Below, one piece after another: positions 1,643-62,680 of a stretch of DNA of 64,000 nt. The translations under genes and the position numbers were made by a program. The stretch's first letter is position 1. Each line of letters starts with the position of its first letter. The notes beneath the pieces were generated by a model that ran no database searches, had not been told where the DNA came from, and saw only the letters and a list, made by a program, of their open reading frames with translations. This DNA comes from Octopus vulgaris (taxonomy: Eukaryota), in NCBI GenBank assembly GCA_951406725.2, contig OX597814.1, positions 68,510,001 through 68,574,000 of the forward strand. The letters run 5' to 3'.

Positions 1643-1991
1643 TAGATCGACCCCAGTGCATAACTGGTACATAATTTATTGGCCCCGAAAGGATGAAGGG
1701 CAAAGTCGACCTCAGTCGAATTTGAACTCAGAACGTAAAGACAGACGAAATAGCGCTAAGCATTTCGCCCGGCGTGCTAACGTTTCTTATTTCTTTACTG
1801 CCCACAAGGGGCTACACGCAGAGGGGACAAACAAGGACAAACGGATTAAGTCGATTATGTCGACCCTAGTGCGTAACTGGTACTTACTTAATCGAGCCCA
1901 AAAGGATGAAAAGCAAAGTCGACCTCGGCGGAATTTGAACTCAAAACGCATTTCGCCCGGTGTGCTAACGATTCTGCCAGCTCGCCGCCTT
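1643..1991 (-). mobile_element. Two tandem/nested copies of a tRNA-headed SINE (GGCGGCGAGCTGGCAGAA head family)
   Basis: Same head and body as the SINEs at 27029 and 32650. The 1790-1991 copy is complete with a tail; the 1643-1787 copy lacks the first ~14 nt. Confidence 0.85.

Positions 1992-49031: not shown

Positions 49032-49103
<72 letters not shown>
49032..49103. repeat. (GATA)18 microsatellite abutting the 3' end of Tx1 copy A
   Basis: Directly visible. Confidence 0.97.
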
Positions 49104-49104
<1 letters not shown>

Positions 49105-49403
49105 CTTTCTTTTATTAGACACGCAGGGCTGAATACAGAGTGGACAAATACAAATGTGCAGAGCTTTTCTTTTCGAGGGTGGAAAAAAAAGAAAATAAAT
49201 GTAAGATTGCGATCAAAAGGGATCGAGAGGAGGAAAAAAAAGAAAAGAAATCGTGTATCACAGAAACAATGATAAAAACATTGATAAAACAAGATTGGGT
49301 TCATCCGTGGGAAGAAAAGACTACAGAAAAGACCACGGGAACCTCAGTCAGGGAGGAAATAAACACATGAGAGCAAAATGCTCTCTCTCTTTCTTTTTAC
49401 GAT

Positions 49404-52400
49404 CTACAGGATCATGCTCAAAATGGTTTCGTCACTCGCACGCACCATCTTTGCAACATTCACCCACCTTTTTATTAATCTTTCGCGAGACAAAACTTCC
49501 CTCTCCATTCTCACCTTCCTTTTCAAGTGGTACTTGAAAAAGTTGATGAGCGATTGGCCAGAGAGGTAAGTGTTTGTCTCTAATCCTTTCGCTCGGGTCC
49601 ACCACACACATTCTTTCACCATGGCCACCAGTACGATGAAAACTGCCTTGCCTTCCCGGTTGAGGGAAGGGGGCGGAGCAACTTTCACGATAGACTCGGC
49701 CGATAGGCGGATTCGTCCCACATGTGACAGCAGCCGTTCGGCATAAGCCCACAGGTCTGAAATGGTTGGACATTGCACGAGTGCGTGCAGAACGGTTTCG
49801 TCGCTCTGACCGCATCTCGGGCAAGTCGGTGCAGTGTGTCTGGAACCGTGTCTGTAGAGCTTATCCCGAACAGGTAATGCTTCTCGATAGCACTGCCAGG
49901 CCTGGGATCTTTGGTGATTGTTCATAGGTCCCGGCCCGAAAGTTGTCCTGAACAGGCGGGTCAGGTGTTCCTCGTCGACGCCCAGACTCTGCCCGAGTTC
50001 GTCGTCGCACCTCCCCTCCTCTAATCCTCTATAGAATGCCTTTGTTGTGCTGGAGTCGCACAAGTTCGATCCTGGACGGCAGAGTTGCTTGAGAGCAACG
50101 CGACACTCGCGGTGCCATTCGCCTAACCTCGGTCTCTGCTTGATCCATGACTGTAGTTCGTCCAAGGAGATGAGCTGTGCGAAAGCGCGCCGCACAAAAG
50201 GCGACCACACCTGTTCACCGTTGTCTATGAAGCGCCGGAGATGTCGCAGTCTCAGCGCATGTCTGCGCATCATCAACCACGGCATGCCCAGCCCTCCATT
50301 TAGCGGGTGTTGACAGCAAATGGATCGCCTAACCATCGGAACGTTTCCCTTCCACAGGAAGCGGAAGAGTATACGTTCCAGTTTGGTGATGGTAGGGTCG
50401 GGACAAGGCACGACGGTCAGGCAGTAGTAGATGACGGATGCGATGTACGCGTTCGCCACCTCCGCCCGACCTTTTAGGGATAGCTTTCTCTCAGCCCCAT
50501 TTCTGGGTGAGAGTAGACACCCTAGTCGTTATCTCGCCCCAGTTCTTCTCCATTTGGAGGTTCGGACCGAACCAGACCCCGAGCAATTTAACCGGTCCGT
50601 CCGTCCAGCGTCCCATGATGGAGACGCTGTTGGACGGCATGGGCCTGCTTCTCCAGGTGCCGAGCCGCAAGCCCACTGACTTTTCCCGGTTAATTTTTGC
50701 TCCCGTTACCGCTTCGTATTCTTTTAGTGTCTCGCCGACCAGCTCGATGTGCTGGTAGCTCGACACTATGACGGTGACGTCATCCGCGTATGCAGACACG
50801 CTCCTCCCGCATCCCAGCTCTCGTGGGATGCCCCTCAGCGTCGCCAGTTTCCGCAGTAGTGGCTCAAGAGTCAATACATACAGCAGCGACGAGAGGGGGC
50901 ATCCCTGACGAACCGAACGCATGATGTTAAAAGGTCTGGATAGATGACCATTTACGAGGAACTACTGAGCGGATGCCGCTGTATAAGGCAGCGATCCAAC
51001 CGCGGAAAACTGGACCGAAACCAGCCACTTTAAGGACAGCCTCCAAGTAGTGATGGTCTACCCTATCGAAAGCTTTTGATTGATCCAAATTGATCAGCGC
51101 CCCACCCATGCCAGGATTCTTCACTACACTGTCTATGATGTAGCGCATCAGATGGAGGTTGTCATGAATACTTCTACCCGGCACGGCGCATGTTTGCGCC
51201 TTGTCGATTAGTTTCTTGATGACAAGCGCCAACCTCTCGGCTAACACCTTGGCCAAAATTTTCAAATCTGCGTTGAGCAGAGTGATGGGCCTGAAATTAT
51301 CTATGACGTCCCCATTGTTTGGGTCTTTCTTAATCAGTGCCACTGCTCCTCGCTTTACAAAAGCAGGAATACTCCCGTTTTGCTGCCAGTTGCAGTAGAC
51401 AGCTGCCAAGACGCCTCCAAACAAGTCTGGCATATGACAATAGAGTTCGTAGGGCAGACCATCCAAGCCTGGTGACTTGTCTCTCGCGCAGCCCCCGCCC
51501 CCCCCATCGCATCCCGTACGTCCGCAGCTGTGATAGGCCTTTCACAAGACTCCACCTCTCTTGCTGAGAGTCGTGGCAAGGCATGCAGGTAGGCACTAAA
51601 GTCCACTCTGCGTTCTGACCCACCACTTGTCCCAAACAGTTGGGTGAAGTGTTGTTGAAAAGCCCCACACATCCTTTTAGGCTCGAGCAATTCGCGCCCC
51701 TGTTCATCTATAAGAGACTTGATGGTGGCTCTGTTGCCTCGTTGCGTCTCCACCACTCGGGCCTCTTGGGCGGCTCCAACTCCTTCGTTCCTCAGAGCAC
51801 GCATCCTAGCTCTGACAACGCATCCCTCGTGTTTGGCGTTGAGGTGTTGGTCGAGGGCCAATCTCGCCGCCAGCACGTTGGACGCGATGTCAGTTCTAAG
51901 TGCCTCTTCTAAAACCTTAACTAATTCTCCCTCTATCCTATTTCGGTCTAATGCTAGGGCTTTACTGTATCTGACTGATTCTGCTTTAATTGCTTTTTTT
52001 AGGGCATACCACCATCTGTTGTTGATGATGGTACCCGTCAAAGCTCTCTTAACTAATGTGCTGATCCGGTCCCTGTAAACCTGTCGTGCTGTAAAAGACG
52101 CGTTCAGTTTCCAGTAACCAGGACTCTGCCTATGTGTCTTATCTAAGTCAAGTGTACAAGTCACAAACTTGTGATCTGTGTAACTGACTATATGAAATTG
52201 TGGACAACCTACACTATTTTTATTTATTGTCCTACAGAATACTCTATTTAAGTATGATCTGGACGACCCAATGCAGTTACTCCATGTCCACATTGGCACA
52301 TTCGGGTGGTCCAGTCGGTACCTGTCAGACAGTTGGAAACGTCTGAGCAGGTCTTTGAGGGATTTGCATCCCCTTCTATTGCTATCTCTGCCCACGTAGT

Positions 52401-52851
52401 CTAGATGCGTGTCCAGGGTGGCATTCCAATCCCCCACTAAAAGTAAAGGACGAGACGTTCCCATGAAAGACTCTAGACGTCGAAAGAAATCTGGTCGGCC
52501 TGTTAAGGACGGAGCATAAACTGTTATCAGTCGAAAAGCACACTCATTGCTGCCATCGACATCCAAAACGACCAGCCTACCCTCCGGGTCTAGGAAAATT
52601 GCTCTTACTTTGAGATCCAGACTCTTCCGGAGAAGCACCGCGGTGCTGCCTCCGCCCATTCTCGGTAGACACGGAGAAAAATAAATGTTGAAATGTGTAC
52701 CGAAACTGTGCTGGAGTGCACGCGAGCTGTGGAGTCTGGTCTCACTGATGGCTATGATATTCAGATTTAGTGACTTGATGTCATTTAACAGGTAGCCTTG
52801 TTTCCAAGGCGACCCCAAGCCATGTACATTTATACTGCCTATTCTGAGCAT
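49404..52851 (-). pseudogene. Tx1 copy A ORF2: APE endonuclease, reverse transcriptase, C-terminal CCHC (about 3 frameshifts)
   Basis: SINVHGL, ISETRL, VGDWNA, YTDHKFV, PGYWKLN; FRPITLLNADLKILAK, DQSKAFDRVDH, VRQGCPLS, AYADDV; CPRCGQSDETVLHALVQC. Confidence 0.95.
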
Positions 52852-52918
52852 GTTCCGATAAAAATTGTGTTTTACACACGAAAAGAAAGTGCAAAAAAGG
52901 AAAGAGAGAGAGAAAAGG

Positions 52919-53200
52919 TTACTTGTTGTTCGAAAGTCCTTTGTTTTTCACCTCACAGTCTTCTTCCATGAGATTTTTATATAGTTTCTTTGATGAATAT
53001 TTTTGAAATCTCCCTACTGCATCAGGGTAAAGAGATTTCAGGGTGATGTATGTGTTCTGTGTTACGTGTATTATTTTAATGTGTTGTGGTGGTGTTGTGC
53101 GTGGGTGGTTATTTGTTTTTATGTCGTTTTCAGTTATGTTGGTATTTGACCTAATGTGTTCTATTAGGTCGTGGTTGTTTGTGTTTATGGCTGTCAACAT
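52919..53200 (-). CDS. Conserved 93-aa ORF between the ORF1 body and ORF2 (copy A); separate ORF or ORF1 C-terminal domain
   Basis: ATG start, uninterrupted, colinear homologue of identical length at 60430-60711. Confidence 0.55.
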   Translation of the reverse strand: MLTAINTNNHDLIEHIRSNTNITENDIKTNNHPRTTPPQHIKIIHVTQNTYITLKSLYPDAVGRFQKYSSKKLYKNLMEEDCEVKNKGLSNNK

Positions 53201-53231
53201 TGTTGGGGGGTTTGATGATGGTGTGTTTGTG

Positions 53232-55137
53232 TTAATGTGTTTGTTTTCTGTGGATGTTTTTGTTTCGGGAGTGGTGAATCTTCCTGCTTTGTTTGTTATC
53301 TTTTCTTTTCTTTTTTTTTCCCCTTTTTCTTCTCCCCCCTGTGGCTATTTTCCAATCTTCTGTGTCTTCTTCGTCTAATGACAAATCAGAGGAATCAGAG
53401 CTTGGGAGAGGGAAAATATTGGTGTCTATTGTAGACTGTGTTGATTTTGTTGTTGGTGTTGGTTGGTGAGCGTTAGGTTGTGGTGTATGCGGTTTTGGAG
53501 GTGGGGTGTGGGTATTTTGTGTTTGAGTGATTGTAGGTATTGTTGTGTTGTTCGGGGTGTCAATTTTGTGGAGATTTGAAGTAGTAATTGTTTCTTCATT
53601 TTCGATGAGTGTATCTTTGGCAGATGTCCTTGGTTTGGGAGTTGGTTTATTCTTGGTTGTTGTTGTTGTTGGTGTTGCTTCTGTTCTTGGTGCAGTTGGT
53701 GTGGTTGTTTGGTTGGTGAGGGTTTTTTTTTTTTGATTTTCTGTGATTAGTCCTGTTTGTACCAATTGTGGTGTGGGTAGTAAAGCTGGCTTTTTTGTTT
53801 TTTCCGGCTGCTGTTGTTGTTGCTGTTGATTTCTTGCGGCATATTTGTAATCTTTTTTTAGGTGTTGTTCACTGCCGCATAGGTAGCAACGTGGTCTTCT
53901 GCCATCGACGACCACATACAACTTGTGGTCTTCTGATACACATATCTGGGTGGGTATTTTCTTTGTCATCTTGGTTTATATGTAGTAGAAATTCTTCTTT
54001 TTTTCCCACCCAGTTTTTGTGTTCCGTGACCGTAGTTTCTAAAATTGTGAAATCTTCCATTTTCACACATAAGGCCTTTACTAGCCATAGATTGTTCGCT
54101 ATTTTGGGGACATTGTTTAAAGTGATCTTAGTCACTTTCTGTCCACGATAGCTTGGTATTAATGTCAGTTCATCTGAATGAAGAGTTAGCGTTGAGAAAC
54201 GTTTTGCTAACTCTTCAGTGTGGAAGACCACTTGTATGTGTGCGAACTTGTTCCACCAGGTCACATACTCTTTGTAGTTCCAGATGGGTTTCAAGCATTT
54301 TTCGATTTTGCTTGTGTTAGCCTTCTCTTGACTTTTTGTTTTCTTATTAATTATTTTATATATAATAGTTCTTTTTTTTTCATTTTCTAATATTTCTTGT
54401 GGTATGTTTATTTTTACTATACCATCTACTTCCGTTATTAAAACTTTCGTATCTTTTATCTGCTGTGCAGTAAAATATACTGTTGTCTTTTTTCTTTTAT
54501 CGCCTCGGCGAAATTTGTTGTTGTTTTGTTATTGTTGTTGCTGGTGGTGATGTTGTTGTTGGCTGCAGTTGGTAAAATCGGTGTATTTGTTTTGATTGTG
54601 CAAGTAGGAAGGGGTGGGAAATTACTTGCATAGTGTGTTCCTGTGTTCGAGCAGCTTTTGTCAATTTGTTTGGTGGTCACAGTTTTTTGTTTATTCTCTT
54701 CCGTTCTTGGTGTTGGAGTAAACAAGGTCTGAACGGAATTGTTGTTGTTGTTATTGTTGTTTTTGTTGTTGGTGTTGGTGGTGGTGTCAGTGGCAGAAGA
54801 GACAGCCCTGGCAGCAGATGTTGAAATGGTGGCGCAATTGTTGTTATTCTTGTTGTCATTGTTATTGTTGTTGTTGTTGGTAGTTGAGGTAGTGGATGAG
54901 GTGGCGGTGGTGGTAGTGGTAGAGGCGGTGGTGGTAGTAGTAGTAGACTCGTTGTTGTTGTTAGTGGTGGTGGTGGTGGTGACAGTGCTGTTATCGCAAG
55001 TGGGTGCAGCGTTCACTACCACGTCATTCAGGTTTGCCCTTTGCGTTTTTTCTTCTCCTAGCGTTTCCAGACTAGGAAAATGGATGTCGGTCGATAAAGG
55101 AACGCGACCAGCGTTCTACAATACAATTTCTCGACAT
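53232..55137 (-). pseudogene. Tx1 copy A ORF1 (Thr/Asn-rich N-terminus, RRM-like region, zinc knuckle)
   Basis: IQVVFHTEELAKRF...KITLNNVP; CYLCGSEQHLKKDY knuckle; frameshifted; start position uncertain. Confidence 0.8.
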
Positions 55138-55349
55138 TTTGAAAATGTCGAGAAGAAAATTACACAAATTAAATAGGGTTGAAACTGCCCCTAGGGGCGA
55201 ATTCCTCCCTTGGAAAAGCACTCAAACGAAAGTTGGGTGCCTTACACACCCTATTTACAAAAATGTACCCAAAATATGGGCTATAAATAGTCAAAATAAA
55301 CGATTACCTTCGGAGCCGAAGTGACAGCACGTCCGTAGATGGATAGATA

Positions 55350-56187
55350 GGGCTGGACACAGAGGGGACAATTACAAATGTAGAGCTTTTCTTTTCGGAG
55401 ATGGAAAAGGGAAAAGAAGAAAAAAAGGAAACAAATATAAAATTTCGATCGAAAGGGATCAGAAGAAAAAAAAGGGATCAAAAGGGATCGTGTATCACAG
55501 AAAGAAATTTTTTTTTCAAAGTAACAAACAAGATTAAGGTTCATCCGTGGAAAGAAAGGCCTACAGAAAAGACCACGATAATCTTAGGCAGGGAGGAAAT
55601 AAACACATGAGAGCAAAGTGCTCTCTCTCTCTCTTACGATTTACAAGATCATGCTCAAAGTGGTTTCGTCACTCGCACGCACCATCTTTGTTACATTCAC
55701 CCACTTTTTTTTAAAACTTTCACGAGACAAAACCTGCCTCTCCATTCTCACCTTCCTTTTCAAGTGGTGCTTGAAAAAGTTGATGAGTGATTGGCCAGAG
55801 AGGTAAGTGTTTGTCTCTAATCCTTTCGCTCGAGTCCACCACACACATTCTTTCACCATAGCCACAAGTGCGATGAAGACTACCTTGCCTTCCCGGTTGA
55901 AGGAAGGGGGTGGTGCAATTACCACGATAGATTCGGCCGACAGGCGGACTCGTCCCACATGTGACAGCAGCCGCTCGGCATGAGCCGACAGGTTCGAAAT
56001 GGATGGACACTGCACGAGTGCGTGCAGAACGGTTTCGTCACTCTGACCGCATCTCAGGCAAGTCGGTCCAGTATGTCTCGAACCGTGCCAGTAGAGCTTA
56101 TCCCAAACAGGTAATGCTTCTCGATAGCACTGCCAGGCCTGGGATCTTTGGTGATTGTCCATAGGTCCCGACCCGAAAGTTGTCCTG
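55350..56187 (-). mobile_element. Tx1 copy B, 5'-truncated (ORF2 C-terminus 55641-56162 plus 3' UTR)
   Basis: Close paralogue of 49125-49950; separated from copy A by TAGATGGATAGATAG. Confidence 0.92.
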
Positions 56188-56481
56188 ATCGGAAGAAAAG
56201 AAAGCGATCAAAAGCGATCGTATATCATAGAAAGAAAAAAAAAATTTTTTTCAAGGTAACAAAACAAGATTAGGTTAATCTGTGGAAAGAAAAGCCCACA
56301 GAAAAGCCCACAGAAAAGACCACGGCAACCTCAGGCAGGGAGGAAATAAACACATCTCTCTCTCTTTTACGATTTACAGGATCATGCTCAAATTGGTTTC
56401 GTCACTCGCACGCACCATCTTTGCTACATTCACCCACCTTTTTTTGAAACTTTCTCGAGACAAAACCAGCCTTTCCATTCT
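56188..56481 (-). mobile_element. Tx1 copy B', truncated at both ends
   Basis: Paralogue of 55460-55750; its 5' junction is directly on (GATA)n. Confidence 0.88.
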
Positions 56482-56482
56482 T

Positions 56483-56639
<157 letters not shown>

Positions 56640-56977
56640 TGTTTCTTTATTACCCACACAGGTCTGCACACAGACGGGACAGATTACAAAGTAGAGCTTT
56701 TCTTTTGGGGGGGAGAGAAAAATATAAAGGTGGGGTAGAATTTCGATCAAAAGGGATCGTAAAAGGGAAAGCAAAAAAAAGGAAAAGAAACAAAAAAAAA
56801 CACGATCAATACGGATCGTGAATCACAGTGTCATGATGTAAGGTGTAAAGGGGAAGAAGATAAGGTTTATCCGTGGGAAGAAAAGCCTACGGAAAAGACC
56901 ACGGTAACCTCGGTCAATGAAGTCACATGTTGTATTTTGTTACAAATAAGTAACTCTCTGTACTAAATTTTTACGAT

Positions 56978-59900
56978 TCATAGGATCATACTCAAGGTGG
57001 CTTCGTCATTCATACGTGCCATCTTTGCTACATTCACCCATTTTTTTAAAAACATTCACTAGACAAAACTTGCCTCTCTACTCTACTCTCACTTTCCTTT
57101 TCAAGTGATACTTGAAGAAGTTGATGAGAGATTGACCAGAGAGGAAAGTGTTTGTCTCCAATCCTTTCAGACGCGCCCACCAGATACATTCTGTCGCCAT
57201 AGCCACAAGGATGAGGAAAATAGCTCTTCCTTCCCGTTTGAAGGAAGGAGGCGTGACAATATTGACGATAGACTCGGCTGATAAACTGACTCGTCCCACA
57301 CGTGACAGCAGTTGTTCGACATAAGCCCACAGGTCGGAAATTGTTGGACACTGCACGAGTGCGTGCAGAACCGTTTAGTCGCTCTGACCGCATCTCGGGC
57401 AGGTCGGCCTCATGTTTCTCAAGCTGTGTCTGTAGAGCTTATCCTGAACGGGTAGCGCTTCTCGGTAGCACTGCTAGGCCAGGGATCTCTGGAAGTTGTC
57501 CAGGGCCCTGGCCCGAAAGTCGTCCTGAACAGGCGGGTCAGGTATTCCTCGTCGACGTCCAGGTTCGCCACGAGCTCGTCGTCGTACCTCCCCTCCACTA
57601 ATACCCTATAGAATGCTTTGGTTGTGTTGAAGTCACTCAAGGTCCACCCGGGACAGCATAGTTGCTTGAGAGCAATGCTACACTCGCGGTGCCATTCGCC
57701 CTTTCTCGGCCTCTTTTTGATCCACGACTGCAGTTCGGTCATGGATACGAGTTGCGGGAAAGCGTGCCTCACAAACGGCGACCACACCTGTTCACCGTCG
57801 TCTATGTAGAGCCGAAGATATCGCAGTCTCAGCGCGTGTCTGCGCATCATCAACCACGGCATGCCCAGTCCTCCTTTTAATGGGTGTTGACAGCAAATGG
57901 ATCACCTGACCATCGGGACGCATCCTTTCCAGAAGAAGCTGGAGAGAATGCGTTCTAGTTTAGTGATGTTAGGATCGGGACAAGGTACGACGGCCAGGTG
58001 GTAGTAGATGACGGACGCGATGTACGAGTTCGCGACCTCCGCCCGACCTTTTAGGGACAGTTTCCTCTGGCCCATTGCCTGGTGACAGTGACCACTCTAC
58101 TCGTTATTTCGTTCCAGTTCTTCTCCATTTGAAGGTCCGGACCAAACCAAACCCCGAGCAACTCGACCGGACCGTCGGTCCAGCGGTCCACGACGGAGGC
58201 GCTGGTGTACGGCATGGGCTTGCTTCTCCAGGTGCCGAGTCGCAAACCCACTGATTTTTCCCGGTTGATTTTCGCTCCTGTCACCGCTTCGTAGTCTTTC
58301 AGTGTCTCGCCGACCTGCTCGATGTGCTCGTGTCTAGACACTATGACGGTGACGTCCGCGTATGCAGACACACTCTTCCCGCTTCCCAATTCTCGCGGGA
58401 TGCCCCTCAGAGTTGCCAGCTTCCGCAATAATAGCTCGAGAGTTAATACGTAGAGAAGCGACGAGAGGGGGCATCCCTGACGGACCGAACGTTCAATGTC
58501 GAAAGGTCTCGATAGATGTCCATTTACGCGAATTACCAAACGGGTGCCTCTGTACAAAGCGGCTATCCAGCCGCGGAAGACGGGACCGAAACCAGCGGCT
58601 CTGAGGACAGCCTCCAAATATTGATGGTCTACCCTATCGAAAGCTTTCGATTGATCCAAATTTATCAGCGCCCCCACCCACGCCAGGTTCCTTAACTACC
58701 CTGTCTATGATGTAGCGCATCAGGTGGAGGTTGTTATGGATGCTCCGGCCCGGCACAGCGCACGTTTGCGCCTTGTCGACCAATTTCTCGATAACACGCG
58801 CCAACTTCTCGGCTAACACTTTGGCCAAAATTTTCAAGTCTGCATTAAGCAGAGTGATGGGCCTAAAGTTGTCTATTACATTCCCCTTGTTTAGATCTTT
58901 CTTCAGCAGTGTTACGGCTCCTCAGCTCACAAAACCAGGAATGCTCCCGTTTTGCTGCCAGTTGCAGTACACCGCCGCCAAGACGTCTCCAAACAAGTCT
59001 GCCATACAATTGTAAAGCTCGTAGGGTAGACCATCCAAACCCGGCGATTTGTCCCTTGAGCATTCTGCCATCGCGTCCTGCACTTCCGCCGCCGTGATGG
59101 CAGCTTCGCAGCGCCCTGCCTCTCTTGTCGAGAGTCGTGGTAGGCTGTGTAGGTAGGCATTGAAGTCCACTTTACGTTCTTGCCCGCCACTCGTCCCGAA
59201 CAGTCAGGCAAAATGTTGTTGAAAGGCCTCACACATTTTACTTGGCTCGAGCAATTCGCGCCCCCTTTCATCTACCAGAGACCGAATGGTGGCTTTGTTG
59301 CCCTGCTGCGCCTTCGCCACCCGGGCGTCTCTCGCAGCTCCAACACCTTCGTTCCTTAGAGCACGCATCCTAGCTCTGACAACACACCCTTCGTGTTTGG
59401 CGTGTTGGTCGAGGCACAACCTCGCCGCCAAAACATCGGATGCGATGCCGCTTCTAATTGCCTCTTCTAGCTTCTTAACTAACTCACCCTCTATTCTGTT
59501 TCCATCTATGGCTAGTGCTTTACTGTACCTAATCGCTTCTGCTTTTACTGCTCTCTTGAGAGCAAACCACCATTTGTTGTTGATGATGGCTCCCGTCAAA
59601 GCCCTCTTTACTAGTGTGCTAATCCGGTCTCGGAAAACCTGTCGATGGGAAAGACGCTTTTAGTTTCCAGTATCCGGGACCCTGCCTATGTGTCTTACCT
59701 AAGTCTAGCGTACATGTCACAAGTTTGTGATCCGTGTAGCTGACTATGTGGAATTGTGGACATCCTACGCTATCTCTATCTACTGTCCTACACAGTATCC
59801 TATCTAGATACGATCTCGACGACCCACTGCGGTTGCTCCATGTCTACGTTGGCGCATTCGGGTGGTCTAGTCTGTCCCTGTCAGACAGTTGAAAGCGTCT

Positions 59901-60389
59901 GAGCAGGTCTCTGAGGCATTTGCATCCCCGTATATTCCTATCTCTGCCCACGTAGTCTACATGCGTGTCCAATGTAGCATTCCAATCCCCCACTAAGAGT
60001 AAAGGACGAGACGTTCCCAAGAATACTTCTAGACGTTGAAAGAAATCTGGTCGGCCTGTTAAGGGCGGTACGTAGACTGATACGAGTCGAAAAGCGCACC
60101 CATTGCTGCCGTCGACATCCAGAACGACCAGTCTACCCTCCGGGTCTACGAATATTGTCTTTACTTAGAGATCCAGACTCTTGCGTGAAAGTACCGCGGT
60201 GCCACTACCGCCCATTCTTGGCAGACAGAGGGGAAAATAAATGTTGAACTGTCCGCCAAACATGGTCTTTAGGGCCCGCGGATTGTGGAGTCTGGTCTCA
60301 CTTATGGCTATGATTTCTAACTTTAAGAGGTACCCTTGTATCCAAGGGGACCACAAGCCACGCGCATTTACACAACCAATCTTGATCAT
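56978..60389 (-). pseudogene. Tx1 copy C ORF2 (APE-RT-CCHC), many frameshifts
   Basis: MIKIGCVNARGL, ISETRL, KSPGLDGLPYELY, DQSKAFDRVDH, VRQGCPLS, AYAD-V; ends TLSMIL*. Confidence 0.93.
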
Positions 60390-60429
60390 AATCCTAGTGA
60401 ATTAGAATACAAGCGAAAGGAACAGAGGG

Positions 60430-60711
60430 TTACTTACTGCTCGAAAGTTTTGCTTTCTTCTCCTTTGATTTGTCCTCGAGGAGATCCCAGTAAAGTTTCT
60501 TTGTGAGGTATTTTTGGCATTTACCAACTGCACTGGGGAAAATGCCTTTTAGTGCGTGGTGCAGACTTCTGGAGATATGTAATATTTTGATGTGATCCGG
60601 TGGTGTGGTGCATGTGTGATTGTTTGTTTTTATGTCATCTTCAGTTATGTTTGTTTTTGATTTGATGTATTCCATCAAATTTGTGTTTTTGGTGTCTATA
60701 GCCGTGAGCAT
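60430..60711 (-). CDS. Conserved 93-aa ORF (copy C)
   Basis: MLTAIDTKN...NITEDDIKTNNH..TTPPDHIKILH...AVGKCQKY..KKLY aligns without gaps to 52919-53200. Confidence 0.55.
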   Translation of the reverse strand: MLTAIDTKNTNLMEYIKSKTNITEDDIKTNNHTCTTPPDHIKILHISRSLHHALKGIFPSAVGKCQKYLTKKLYWDLLEDKSKEKKAKLSSSK

Positions 60712-60789
60712 GTTTGCTGTATATATTTTTGTGGTGTTGGTGTGGCCGTTGTTTGTGGTGGGTTTCGAAATGTCTTCGAGAGATGTATT

Positions 60790-62349
60790 TCCCCCTGCTT
60801 TGTTTGTGGTTGTGTTTCTGCTCTTTTTCCCCTCCTTTTCTAGCTACTTGCCATTCCTCGCTGGTTTCGTCTTCCGACGAATTTTCTGAGGAATCAGAAG
60901 AGGGTAGGGGTATGTTGTAGGCTTCTATGTATGTCTGTGTAAGTGGTTGTGTTGTTGTTTTCTTTCCTGTTGGTTGTTGAGTGTTTGTGTGGTGAGTGCT
61001 GTATAGGGGATGGAGAATCAGCTTTTGTATATTTTTTTGTTTTCTGTTCCTTTGGTCCTTGCTGTTGTTGGTGGTGTTGGTATTTCCTCAGGTGTTTTCT
61101 CAGGTGTTGTATAATTTTTGGTTGTTGATGGATTAGCTTGGTGTGCTTCTCTTGTCGTCTTCTGTGTTGATGGTGGTGTGGGTAGTAGTGCTTTTTTCTC
61201 AGAGTGTTTTGGTTGTGGTAGTGGTTGTTGTTGTTGCTCTTGTTGTGGAGTGGTTGGACACCTTTTTCAAATGTGCTTCGCTTCCGCACAAATAGCAACG
61301 TTGTCGTCTGCCCTCTACCACTACATAGAGTTTGTAGCCTTCTGGCAGTTCTATAGTGGTGGGTATCTTTTCTCTTGTTGTTTCATCCAATTGAAGGAGG
61401 AACTGGATTGATTTTCCCACCCAGTCTTTCTGTTCAAGAACAGCGATTTCAAGAATGTTTGTCACTGCCATTTCAAAGCAGATGACAGAGACTAACCATT
61501 GTATTTCGACTTCAGGTGGTACATTTTTTATTTGGATTTTCGTCACCCTCTGGCCTCTATAAGTTGGTATCATTACCAAGTCGTCTGAATGCAGCTCCAA
61601 TGTGGAAAATCGTTTTGCTATATTTTCGTTGAGGAAACGTACTTGGACTGTGCCAAATTTATTTCCCTAACTAATATACTCCTTTGAATCCCATGCAGGA
61701 CGAAGGCATTTTTCAATTTTTTCCTGTGGTGCATTTTCTAGTCGTCTTGTTTTCTTGTTGATGACTTTATAGATTATTGTTTTTTTGTGTGTTTTCCACG
61801 GTGTGTTATGGAATGTGAAGATGCAGTTTTATCTCTTTCTTTGGTGAAGAGTGCTTTTGTGAGGTTTATTTCCTGTGTAGTGAATTTTACGATTGTCCAT
61901 TTTTGTTTTGTCGCATCCGCGAAATTCGTTTTAATTTTGGCGGTGTTAGCAGCAGAAGAGTTAGTTGTAGCAGTTGCAGTCGTGGTAGTGGTGTTGGTGT
62001 TGGCGGTGTTGTCTTCGGTAGGCGGCTTTGTGCTGATTTCGTTGTTGTTGTTGGTAGTGATGGTGGTGGTGCTGGCATTCATGTTTGCGTCTGTATTGGT
62101 TTTTGAAATCCCTTTCTCCGTCCTTCTTTCATCGACAAGTGGTGTAGGGAGTGGGGGAAAATCTAAGTTAATGTCTTTGGTGGCGGCGATGGTGAATGGT
62201 TTTGCGACGTTAGTTTTGTTGTTGTTGGTGGTGGTGGTGACAGCGGGGTTCAAGCTGCGAGGTTTAGCAGCTAATGGCAGCAATAGTGTTTCGCTATCGT
62301 TCCGCATGACTGGTGGGCTAGCCACGTGGTTTTTAGTTGCTATTTTCAT
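60790..62349 (-). pseudogene. Tx1 copy C ORF1
   Basis: ATG at 62349; DFPPLPT, TNFADA, VQVRF...AKRFSTLELHSDDL, CYLCGSEAHLKK; stops and frameshifts. Confidence 0.8.
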
Positions 62350-62578
62350 AATGAAAAATGGCTAAAAAGAACCTACGAAAGTTTTGAAAATTTTTGGTAA
62401 TTTCGCCCATACAGGGGCGGAATTCTACGTGAATAAATCTCAGGTTTTTTAGTGAATGAACTTGCACAACGATTAAGAACAAAATATTTGACAACAAAGA
62501 GTTTTAAACATGTAAAAGTGGCCAACTTACGCGGAGCCCATTTGACTAGCGTCCGTCCATGTCGAGGCGAGAGATATG

Positions 62579-62680
<102 letters not shown>

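Follow-up and report, generated by a model that had tools for sequence, protein, structure and literature searches.

Minus-strand LINE copies in a 64,000-nt stretch of the Octopus vulgaris genome (contig OX597814.1, positions 68,510,001 to 68,574,000; hereafter the window) carry, beyond their second open reading frame, a stem closing a long loop and, further towards the RNA 3′ end, a purine tract complementary to part of that loop. The original prediction read these parts as a conserved 3′-UTR pseudoknot with a triple-helix signature, which would either stabilise the RNA or recruit ORF2. The locus raises the question of whether the long-range pairing is real, whether a third strand lies in its groove, and what such a fold might do for a LINE. 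We denote the closing stem S1, the 5′ half of the loop L1, the helix between the 3′ half of the loop and the tract S2, and the linker L3; the strand order S1–L1–S2–S1′–L3–S2′ is that of an H-type pseudoknot, and by sequence and energy its two helices are compatible.

Tx1-type elements in a (TATC)n microsatellite

Domain searches found APE endonuclease, reverse transcriptase (RT) and zf-RVT domains in the Tx1/L1-type ORF2, whose endonuclease resembles human L1 ORF2p in structure matches and whose named homologues come from Argonauta and Octopus. The layout of two ORFs with an APE endonuclease, RT and a zinc knuckle is L1-like and agrees with that of the Tx1 clade; we assign the element as a probable Tx1-type LINE by this layout and its target-site preference rather than by a tree with named Tx1 references. 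Its GATA/(TATC)n family (F1) numbers thousands of copies in the 2.8 Gb genome, with 1,970 and 3,429 first-look candidates; a loop pattern gave 13,511 loose matches, and the true motif was present in 68 of the first 100 listed (hand count).

We collected 134 F1 copies from retrieved loci, using as anchors the end of ORF2 and the last 21 nt in place of the motif itself; these are top search matches, biased towards intact elements, and both anchors had to be present. TATC repeats lie downstream of 119 of the 134, and upstream of 48 of 77 apparent 5′ junctions, some of which are internal breaks, against a background of 0.045%. Since TATC is found on both sides of the copies, the repeat tail represents the target microsatellite, as for Kibi and Koshi, teleost Tx1-type LINEs inserted specifically in (TC)n and (TTC)n (PMC4494074); the accessible text of that paper mentions neither ‘secondary structure’ nor ‘stem-loop’.

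The features in the window are as follows.

49032–49103, minus strand: (TATC)n target microsatellite after copy A
49104–55345, minus strand: copy A, full-length Tx1/L1-type LINE with frameshifted ORF2 (domain and structure matches)
49111–49116, minus strand: AAUAAA of copy A, about 7 nt from the element end
49117–49131, minus strand: terminal stem-loop of A, mutated in this copy, intact in its subfamily
49158–49171, minus strand: purine tract of A, 3′ strand of predicted S2
49210–49225, minus strand: conserved linker hairpin of A, CGAUC/GAUCG stem and CCUUUU loop
49298–49310, minus strand: 3′ strand of S1 in A
49312–49324, minus strand: 5′ strand of predicted S2 in A (loop 3′ half), with one copy-specific G-to-U change
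49326–49332, minus strand: L1 of A, UCUUUUC, predicted Hoogsteen third strand
49333–49345, minus strand: 5′ strand of S1 in A
55350–56186, minus strand: copy B, 5′-truncated, without terminal stem-loop and AAUAAA
55538–55585, minus strand: hairpin of B, with loop 5′ half at 55566–55572 and 3′ half at 55552–55564; tract at 55380–55393
56187–56482, minus strand: fragment D, with a hairpin (56273–56332) and no tract
56483–56639, minus strand: (TATC)n after copy C
56640–62578, minus strand: copy C, full-length, degenerate
56864–56911, minus strand: hairpin of C, with loop 5′ half at 56892–56898 and 3′ half at 56878–56890; tract at 56691–56704
56803–56818 and 56744–56759, minus strand: linker hairpins of C; terminal stem-loop at 56652–56666, AAUAAA at 56646–56651
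62579–62680, minus strand: second (TATC)n array, preceding copy C

The four copies share one (TATC)n site (49032–62680), where they are nested or arranged in tandem, and ORF2 is 79% identical between A and C. Copy B lacks its tail because copy A appears to have inserted into its end, and fragment D bears a 12-nt tandem duplication in its loop (56288–56323). Hairpin, loop and purine tract lie in A, B and C where the original prediction had placed them, and exceed shuffle expectation (three tract matches in the window against 0.07 expected, five loop starts against 0.03); as the copies are homologous, this recurrence by itself reflects descent, not selection. The predicted loop-tract complementarity of A is present, with a U×C mismatch besides the wobble named earlier; the mismatch is specific to this copy, since G occupies this position in 27 of 28 A-type copies. 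Copy B has two damaged positions in its first stem strand and is missing its last ~25 nt.

The loop-to-tail helix within and between families

Within F1, the hairpin loop and the purine tract are nearly invariant across four subfamilies whose linkers are about 60% identical; among the 134 copies, L1 is exact in 121, the 5′ strand of S2 in 117 and the tract in 125. Comparing the A consensus with that of the young C copies, and taking the linkers (122/203) as the binomial reference, L1 is kept at 7/7 positions (P = 0.028), the S2 5′ strand at 13/13 (P = 0.0013), the tract at 13/14 (P = 0.008) and the terminal stem-loop with AAUAAA at 21/21 (P = 2e-5). The earlier view that the surrounding UTR is poorly conserved thus describes the linkers, but not the terminal stem-loop, AAUAAA or the CGAUC/GAUCG hairpin. 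This linker hairpin (49210–49225, 56744–56759 and 56803–56818 in the window) has a CCU(U/A)UU loop in both F1 and a second family, F2, despite a stem swap between the two. A single tract change produces a U·G wobble in 21 of 28 A copies, so that pairing is kept; no compensatory double change in S2 was found among the 134 F1 copies. Contigs from four sequencing runs, which skipped the tract and the 3′ end as repeats, listed no loop variant at 10% or more, a weak observation.

Further families were found by searching the same genome with diverged ORF2 ends. The ATT-tailed F2, with an ORF2 end 64–66% identical to that of F1, has the homologous hairpin and tract in 50/50 copies; one double change replaces C-G by G-C, and UUUU/AAAA/UUUU is intact. 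The UTRs of families F3–F10 align poorly except for a UGGGGUC hairpin loop and a GACCCCA strand in the tail. The relatives offer loop/tail pairs of changed sequence (GGGUUUU/AAAACCC and UGGGGUC/GACCCCA), and their loop-complementary strand ends 39–67 nt before AAUAAA. An unrooted tree of the ORF2 C-terminus places F3–F12 in one supported clade, apart from F1 and F2. Changes in the crossing helix amount to one double change between F1 and F2 and full turnover in the other families, counted over related rows. Complementarity is retained with changed sequence across families; compensation within F1 is lacking.

A motif-blind search for the best helix joining the start and the end of the UTR, run on 22 rows, gave a hairpin-enclosed helix between loop and tail in 14, namely 3/5 F1 rows and 11/11 rows of the GGGGUC-type families F3–F10. 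The helix ends 39–43 nt before the end signal in nine rows, 60–67 nt in four, and 28 nt in one whose tail is partly deleted. Individually, just 4 of these 14 rows reach p<0.05, and the families are related. For window copies A and B, the two F2 rows and the four F11/F12 rows, the search settled on a different helix. An earlier blind test on the most stable hairpin proved brittle: for most rows it selected a different hairpin or a very small loop (p<0.05 in 4/21), and it was set aside.

Pairing energies point to the same partners. Loops bind same-class tails more tightly than foreign ones (mean −14.1 vs −7.8 kcal/mol), and the best partner lies within the class for 10 of 12; the exceptions are two F2 loops, which prefer foreign tails (−14.4 and −12.3 kcal/mol) to their own (−9.6). 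Before loop penalties, the pseudoknot lies 9–14 kcal/mol below the nested minimum for four consensuses, and 11 (A), 14 (C) and just 3 kcal/mol (B) below it for the window copies. Nested folding, a method that cannot show pseudoknots, recovers S1 in A and not in C and pairs the tract locally. Competing pairings are the tract with a nearby U-run in nested folds, and some GGGGUC loops inside their own hairpin. The hairpin loop is a pyrimidine loop of 21–22 nt, and the linker inside the pseudoknot spans 120–190 nt.

We conclude that the long-range H-type pseudoknot is very probably real, and missing in four sampled relatives; the main argument is that three sequence solutions occupy the same place in the UTR. 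Families F11 and F12 show no pseudoknot, having a weak nested helix that joins similar regions and is no better than in shuffles (p 0.47–0.77), and F11 nevertheless holds copies with intact ORF2. The F11 copies read (L301–L325, L332 and L340) end in the same repeat sequence, and their UTR contains a 9–10 nt stretch complementary to its 3′ junction with the repeat. F2 is very young; copies with an intact 1145-aa ORF2 stand in head-to-tail arrays of ~5.87 kb (L061–L090 and L261–L280) that account for the greater part of two small contigs, C47 and C50.

A candidate third strand

L1 runs parallel to the tract in H-type order, and 7/7 of its positions fit U·A or C·G (four in F2). On conservation and register, a triple helix of five U·A-U and two C·G-C triples is plausible and, in our judgment, probable. 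As a Watson-Crick partner for the tract L1 is poor (−4.6 to −5.5 vs −14.4 kcal/mol). The base after L1 varies between C and U, as expected of a linker, and a single linker base would have to span five pairs, as is usual in H-type pseudoknots. Thus, the original proposal that the loop 5′ half mirrors the tract for Hoogsteen pairing holds in its register, but no compensated triple was found in any family examined, F2 has lost both C·G-C positions, and the U-rich third strand is confined to two lineages, F1 and F2.

An improbable alternative is a pseudoknot with no triple, in which L1 would be a protein-binding sequence or an alternative Watson-Crick partner, or motifs that act as sequence signals without pairing. 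GAAAAG is mirror-symmetric, so that CUUUUC could also pair with it antiparallel, and the conservation of L1 by itself is modest (P = 0.028), with no covariation of triples. This antiparallel helix is, however, ~9 kcal/mol weaker than S2; it mismatches the invariant first U and misfits the next base, the variable linker position. The preservation of loop-tail complementarity by three sequence solutions further argues against non-pairing signals.

In the Hoogsteen position it is pyrimidines that stabilise a triplex (PMC4836648). The Tx1 arrangement resembles telomerase RNA in its H-type order, in a pyrimidine loop parallel to a purine strand and in its nearness to the RT template; in the accessible portions of the sources, the closest match is Kluyveromyces lactis, with five U·A-U and one C·G-C triples, against the five and two predicted here (PMC7583470, PMC13541005). 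Unlike telomerase RNA, the Tx1 motif is part of a LINE mRNA, has a very long third loop, shows no homology, and has a triplex by prediction. With MALAT1 and MEN-beta it has in common an encoded A-rich tract whose G/C interruptions are matched by U-rich strands (PMC7583470, PMC4836648, consulted in part); it lacks their internal loop between two stems, the tRNA-like downstream element and a blunt end at the tract, beyond which the copied templates, known as DNA copies, run ~50 nt further. Transposon ENEs such as that of Evade likewise place a U-rich triplex motif in a transposon 3′ region (PMC12501189, available text). An ENE, however, is a U-rich internal loop between two stems that binds the poly(A) tail, whereas the Tx1 loop is a 21–22 nt hairpin loop with no upper stem that pairs with an internal tract (duplex energy −14.4 vs +0.7 kcal/mol with poly(A)). 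Of the three likenesses in the original prediction, the order and register of telomerase and the matched interruptions of MALAT1 are therefore retained, while the defining features of ENEs and MALAT1 fail. No Rfam model, those for ribozymes, ENE and telomerase included, matched over the motif at E<=10, nor did any reach its gathering score in loci L366, L067 and L259.

ENEs have been described from plants, fungi, slime mould and stickleback retroviruses (PMC7583470, in the text at hand). For triple helices or ENEs in transposons, Evade and one review were the sole items in the literature searched; that open literature, mainly titles and the beginnings of abstracts, yielded no description of such a structure for Tx1 or cephalopod LINEs. 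An octopus repeat annotation lists 13 recently active L1-Tx1 families, and the words ‘UTR’ and ‘secondary structure’ are absent from its accessible text (PMC13282606). The 3′ module is real and apparently undescribed, with the proviso that Tycowski 2016, which reportedly treats transposon ENEs, Repbase or supplements may list such elements.

The RNA 3′ end and the possible role of the pseudoknot

Immediately 5′ of AAUAAA, most families, F11 excepted, carry a stem-loop of 3–4 bp that the first reading had overlooked. With the F11 rows left out, its third pair is Watson-Crick in 15/16 rows with four pair types, and a permutation p of 1e-5 for this covariation is overstated because the rows are related. 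A hinge, the stem-loop and AAUAAA are also common to abundant SINEs, which have a local hairpin at the position of the tract. Under the shared-tail rule, partner SINEs and LINEs have the same 3′ ends (PMC3472496, PMC4824008, available text), and covarying terminal stem-loops common to SINE tails are a feature of stringent LINEs (PMC3472496, PMC4824008, PMC4176376, likewise in part); the likeness covers the last ~25 nt alone and not the pseudoknot. That SINEs copy the terminal stem-loop makes it the likely minimal signal for ORF2p, and the Tx1 elements are indicated as partners of abundant SINEs in the octopus genome.

SINEs with a tRNA-like head, a putatively MetaSINE-like core and this Tx1 hinge, stem-loop and AATAAA tail occur in the window from 32751 onward (plus strand) and twice near 1700–1920 (minus strand), and at many other loci (for example L003, L041 and L253). 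A tail pattern meant for LINEs gave 15,444 genome matches, mostly SINEs.

AAUAAA ends 19/19 family representatives, all trimmed at that motif, and is present in 131/134 F1 copies, a figure inflated since the motif is part of the anchor. Poly(A) was found in 0/134 DNA copies. The suggestion that the RNA may lack poly(A) agrees with these DNA copies and sits less well with the retained AAUAAA; judged from the sequences, a polyadenylated RNA seems at least as likely as one without poly(A). Transcription may read through into the target repeat, with polyadenylation following there.

Template selection by L1/Tx1-type proteins is usually ascribed to poly(A) or a small stem-loop. In the reading we favour, to which we assign a probability of roughly 45%, the pseudoknot would shape the template or dock ORF2p as target-primed reverse transcription begins. 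After the stop codon, S1 (~12 bp) would form; the loop 3′ half would then pair with the tract over 13 bp with one bulge, looping out the variable, U-rich linker of 120–190 nt, and the loop 5′ half would lie parallel in the major groove of S2 through seven triples and one linker base. The tract ends ~40 nt before AAUAAA; hinge, terminal stem-loop and AAUAAA come next. We envision that this pseudoknot-hinge-stem platform would pack the RNA end for the element’s own ORF2 protein, with the pseudoknot acting as a structural partner of the terminal stem-loop; recognition would be by shape, given that different families have different pseudoknot sequences. Triples would lend stiffness to the A/U-rich helix, for which other families have a G-C-rich counterpart. 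With the distance to the 3′ end fixed and the linker free in length, a role at the template end is suggested. The pseudoknot is not generally required, since F11, F12 and the SINEs move without it, and this weakens the docking or template-shaping reading. Of the two functions first proposed, ORF2 recruitment fits better than stabilisation, although the terminal stem-loop is more likely to be the minimal signal.

The nearest counterpart is the 3′ pseudoknot-hinge-stem of A-clade R2, which is bound by the RT and in which compensatory changes rescue insertion (PMC11601368, accessible text). Both are non-LTR elements with a pseudoknot, a short hinge and a terminal stem-loop at the template 3′ end, and in both the fold outlasts the sequence. 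R2, as described there, has a restriction-like endonuclease and a compact module of ~65 nt, whereas the Tx1 element is APE-type, with a 120–190 nt linker, AAUAAA and a predicted triplex; protein contact is known for R2, and the Tx1 module is known here from sequence. A conserved long-range pseudoknot, joined in some families by a predicted triple helix, would carry the R2 principle of pseudoknot, hinge and stem to APE-type LINEs and tie it in form to telomerase RNA.

The main rival, which we consider unlikely, is that the fold stabilises the RNA by slowing deadenylation or 3′-to-5′ decay, ENE-like but with an encoded A-rich partner. Loop and tract have matching C/G interruptions, like those of MALAT1 (PMC7583470), and an ENE triplex raises the stability and mobility of Evade RNA (PMC12501189; both sources in part); DNA copies without poly(A) would also suit it. 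The tract, however, lies ~50 nt inside the end, and the repeat lies within 12 nt of it at 5 genomic places against thousands of copies, a count that has no exact denominator and is set against the 13,511 loose matches and 1,970/3,429 candidates. Trimming the RNA back to the tract would remove the terminal stem-loop; with poly(A) the loop forms no pairing (+0.7 kcal/mol), and in the GGGGUC-type families the same topology exists in the absence of a third strand.

It is also improbable, in our estimate, that the stop-codon region and the 3′ end are joined by the long-range helix to serve cis preference, with new ORF2p passed to its own RNA, or to tune 3′-end processing. The paired loop does lie ~30–110 nt after the stop in pseudoknot-bearing families, the untranslated Pol III SINEs have no comparable bridge, and F11 and F12 join similar regions by their weak nested helix; it is the failure of those nested helices to exceed shuffles (p 0.47–0.77) that speaks against a bridge.

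A bolder form of the docking reading is that an APE-type LINE RT docks on a telomerase-like triplex pseudoknot in its own 3′ UTR, and that the Tx1 group switches between a short G-C-rich pseudoknot with no triples and an A/U-rich one with up to seven. We regard this as speculative and somewhat unlikely; if true, telomerase’s RNA solution would have been reached in a third RT lineage. Families with intact ORF2, with or without the third strand or the pseudoknot, form a natural series on what the triplex adds.

Outside the octopus genome, metagenome relatives are distant (23–40% identity); the motif was not seen by eye in the four of their 80 UTRs that were read (L091, L092, L096 and L101), and no viral relatives were found. 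A MAG labelled Arenicella, a bacterium (CAXXMW contigs, L171–L232 and part of L234–L240), contains tandem arrays of distant Tx1 elements (42–43% identity), likely contamination from a host eukaryote; these have a terminal hairpin with a CUNGU loop and a candidate loop-tail helix of just 5–6 bp. A further type of SINE tail is similar to that of the distant Tx1 in L173–L240. Single distant Tx1 matches occur in three other MAGs, and one metagenome Tx1 relative (28% identical) adjoins a U2 snRNA gene in a Keno-like manner (L096:3838–3979).
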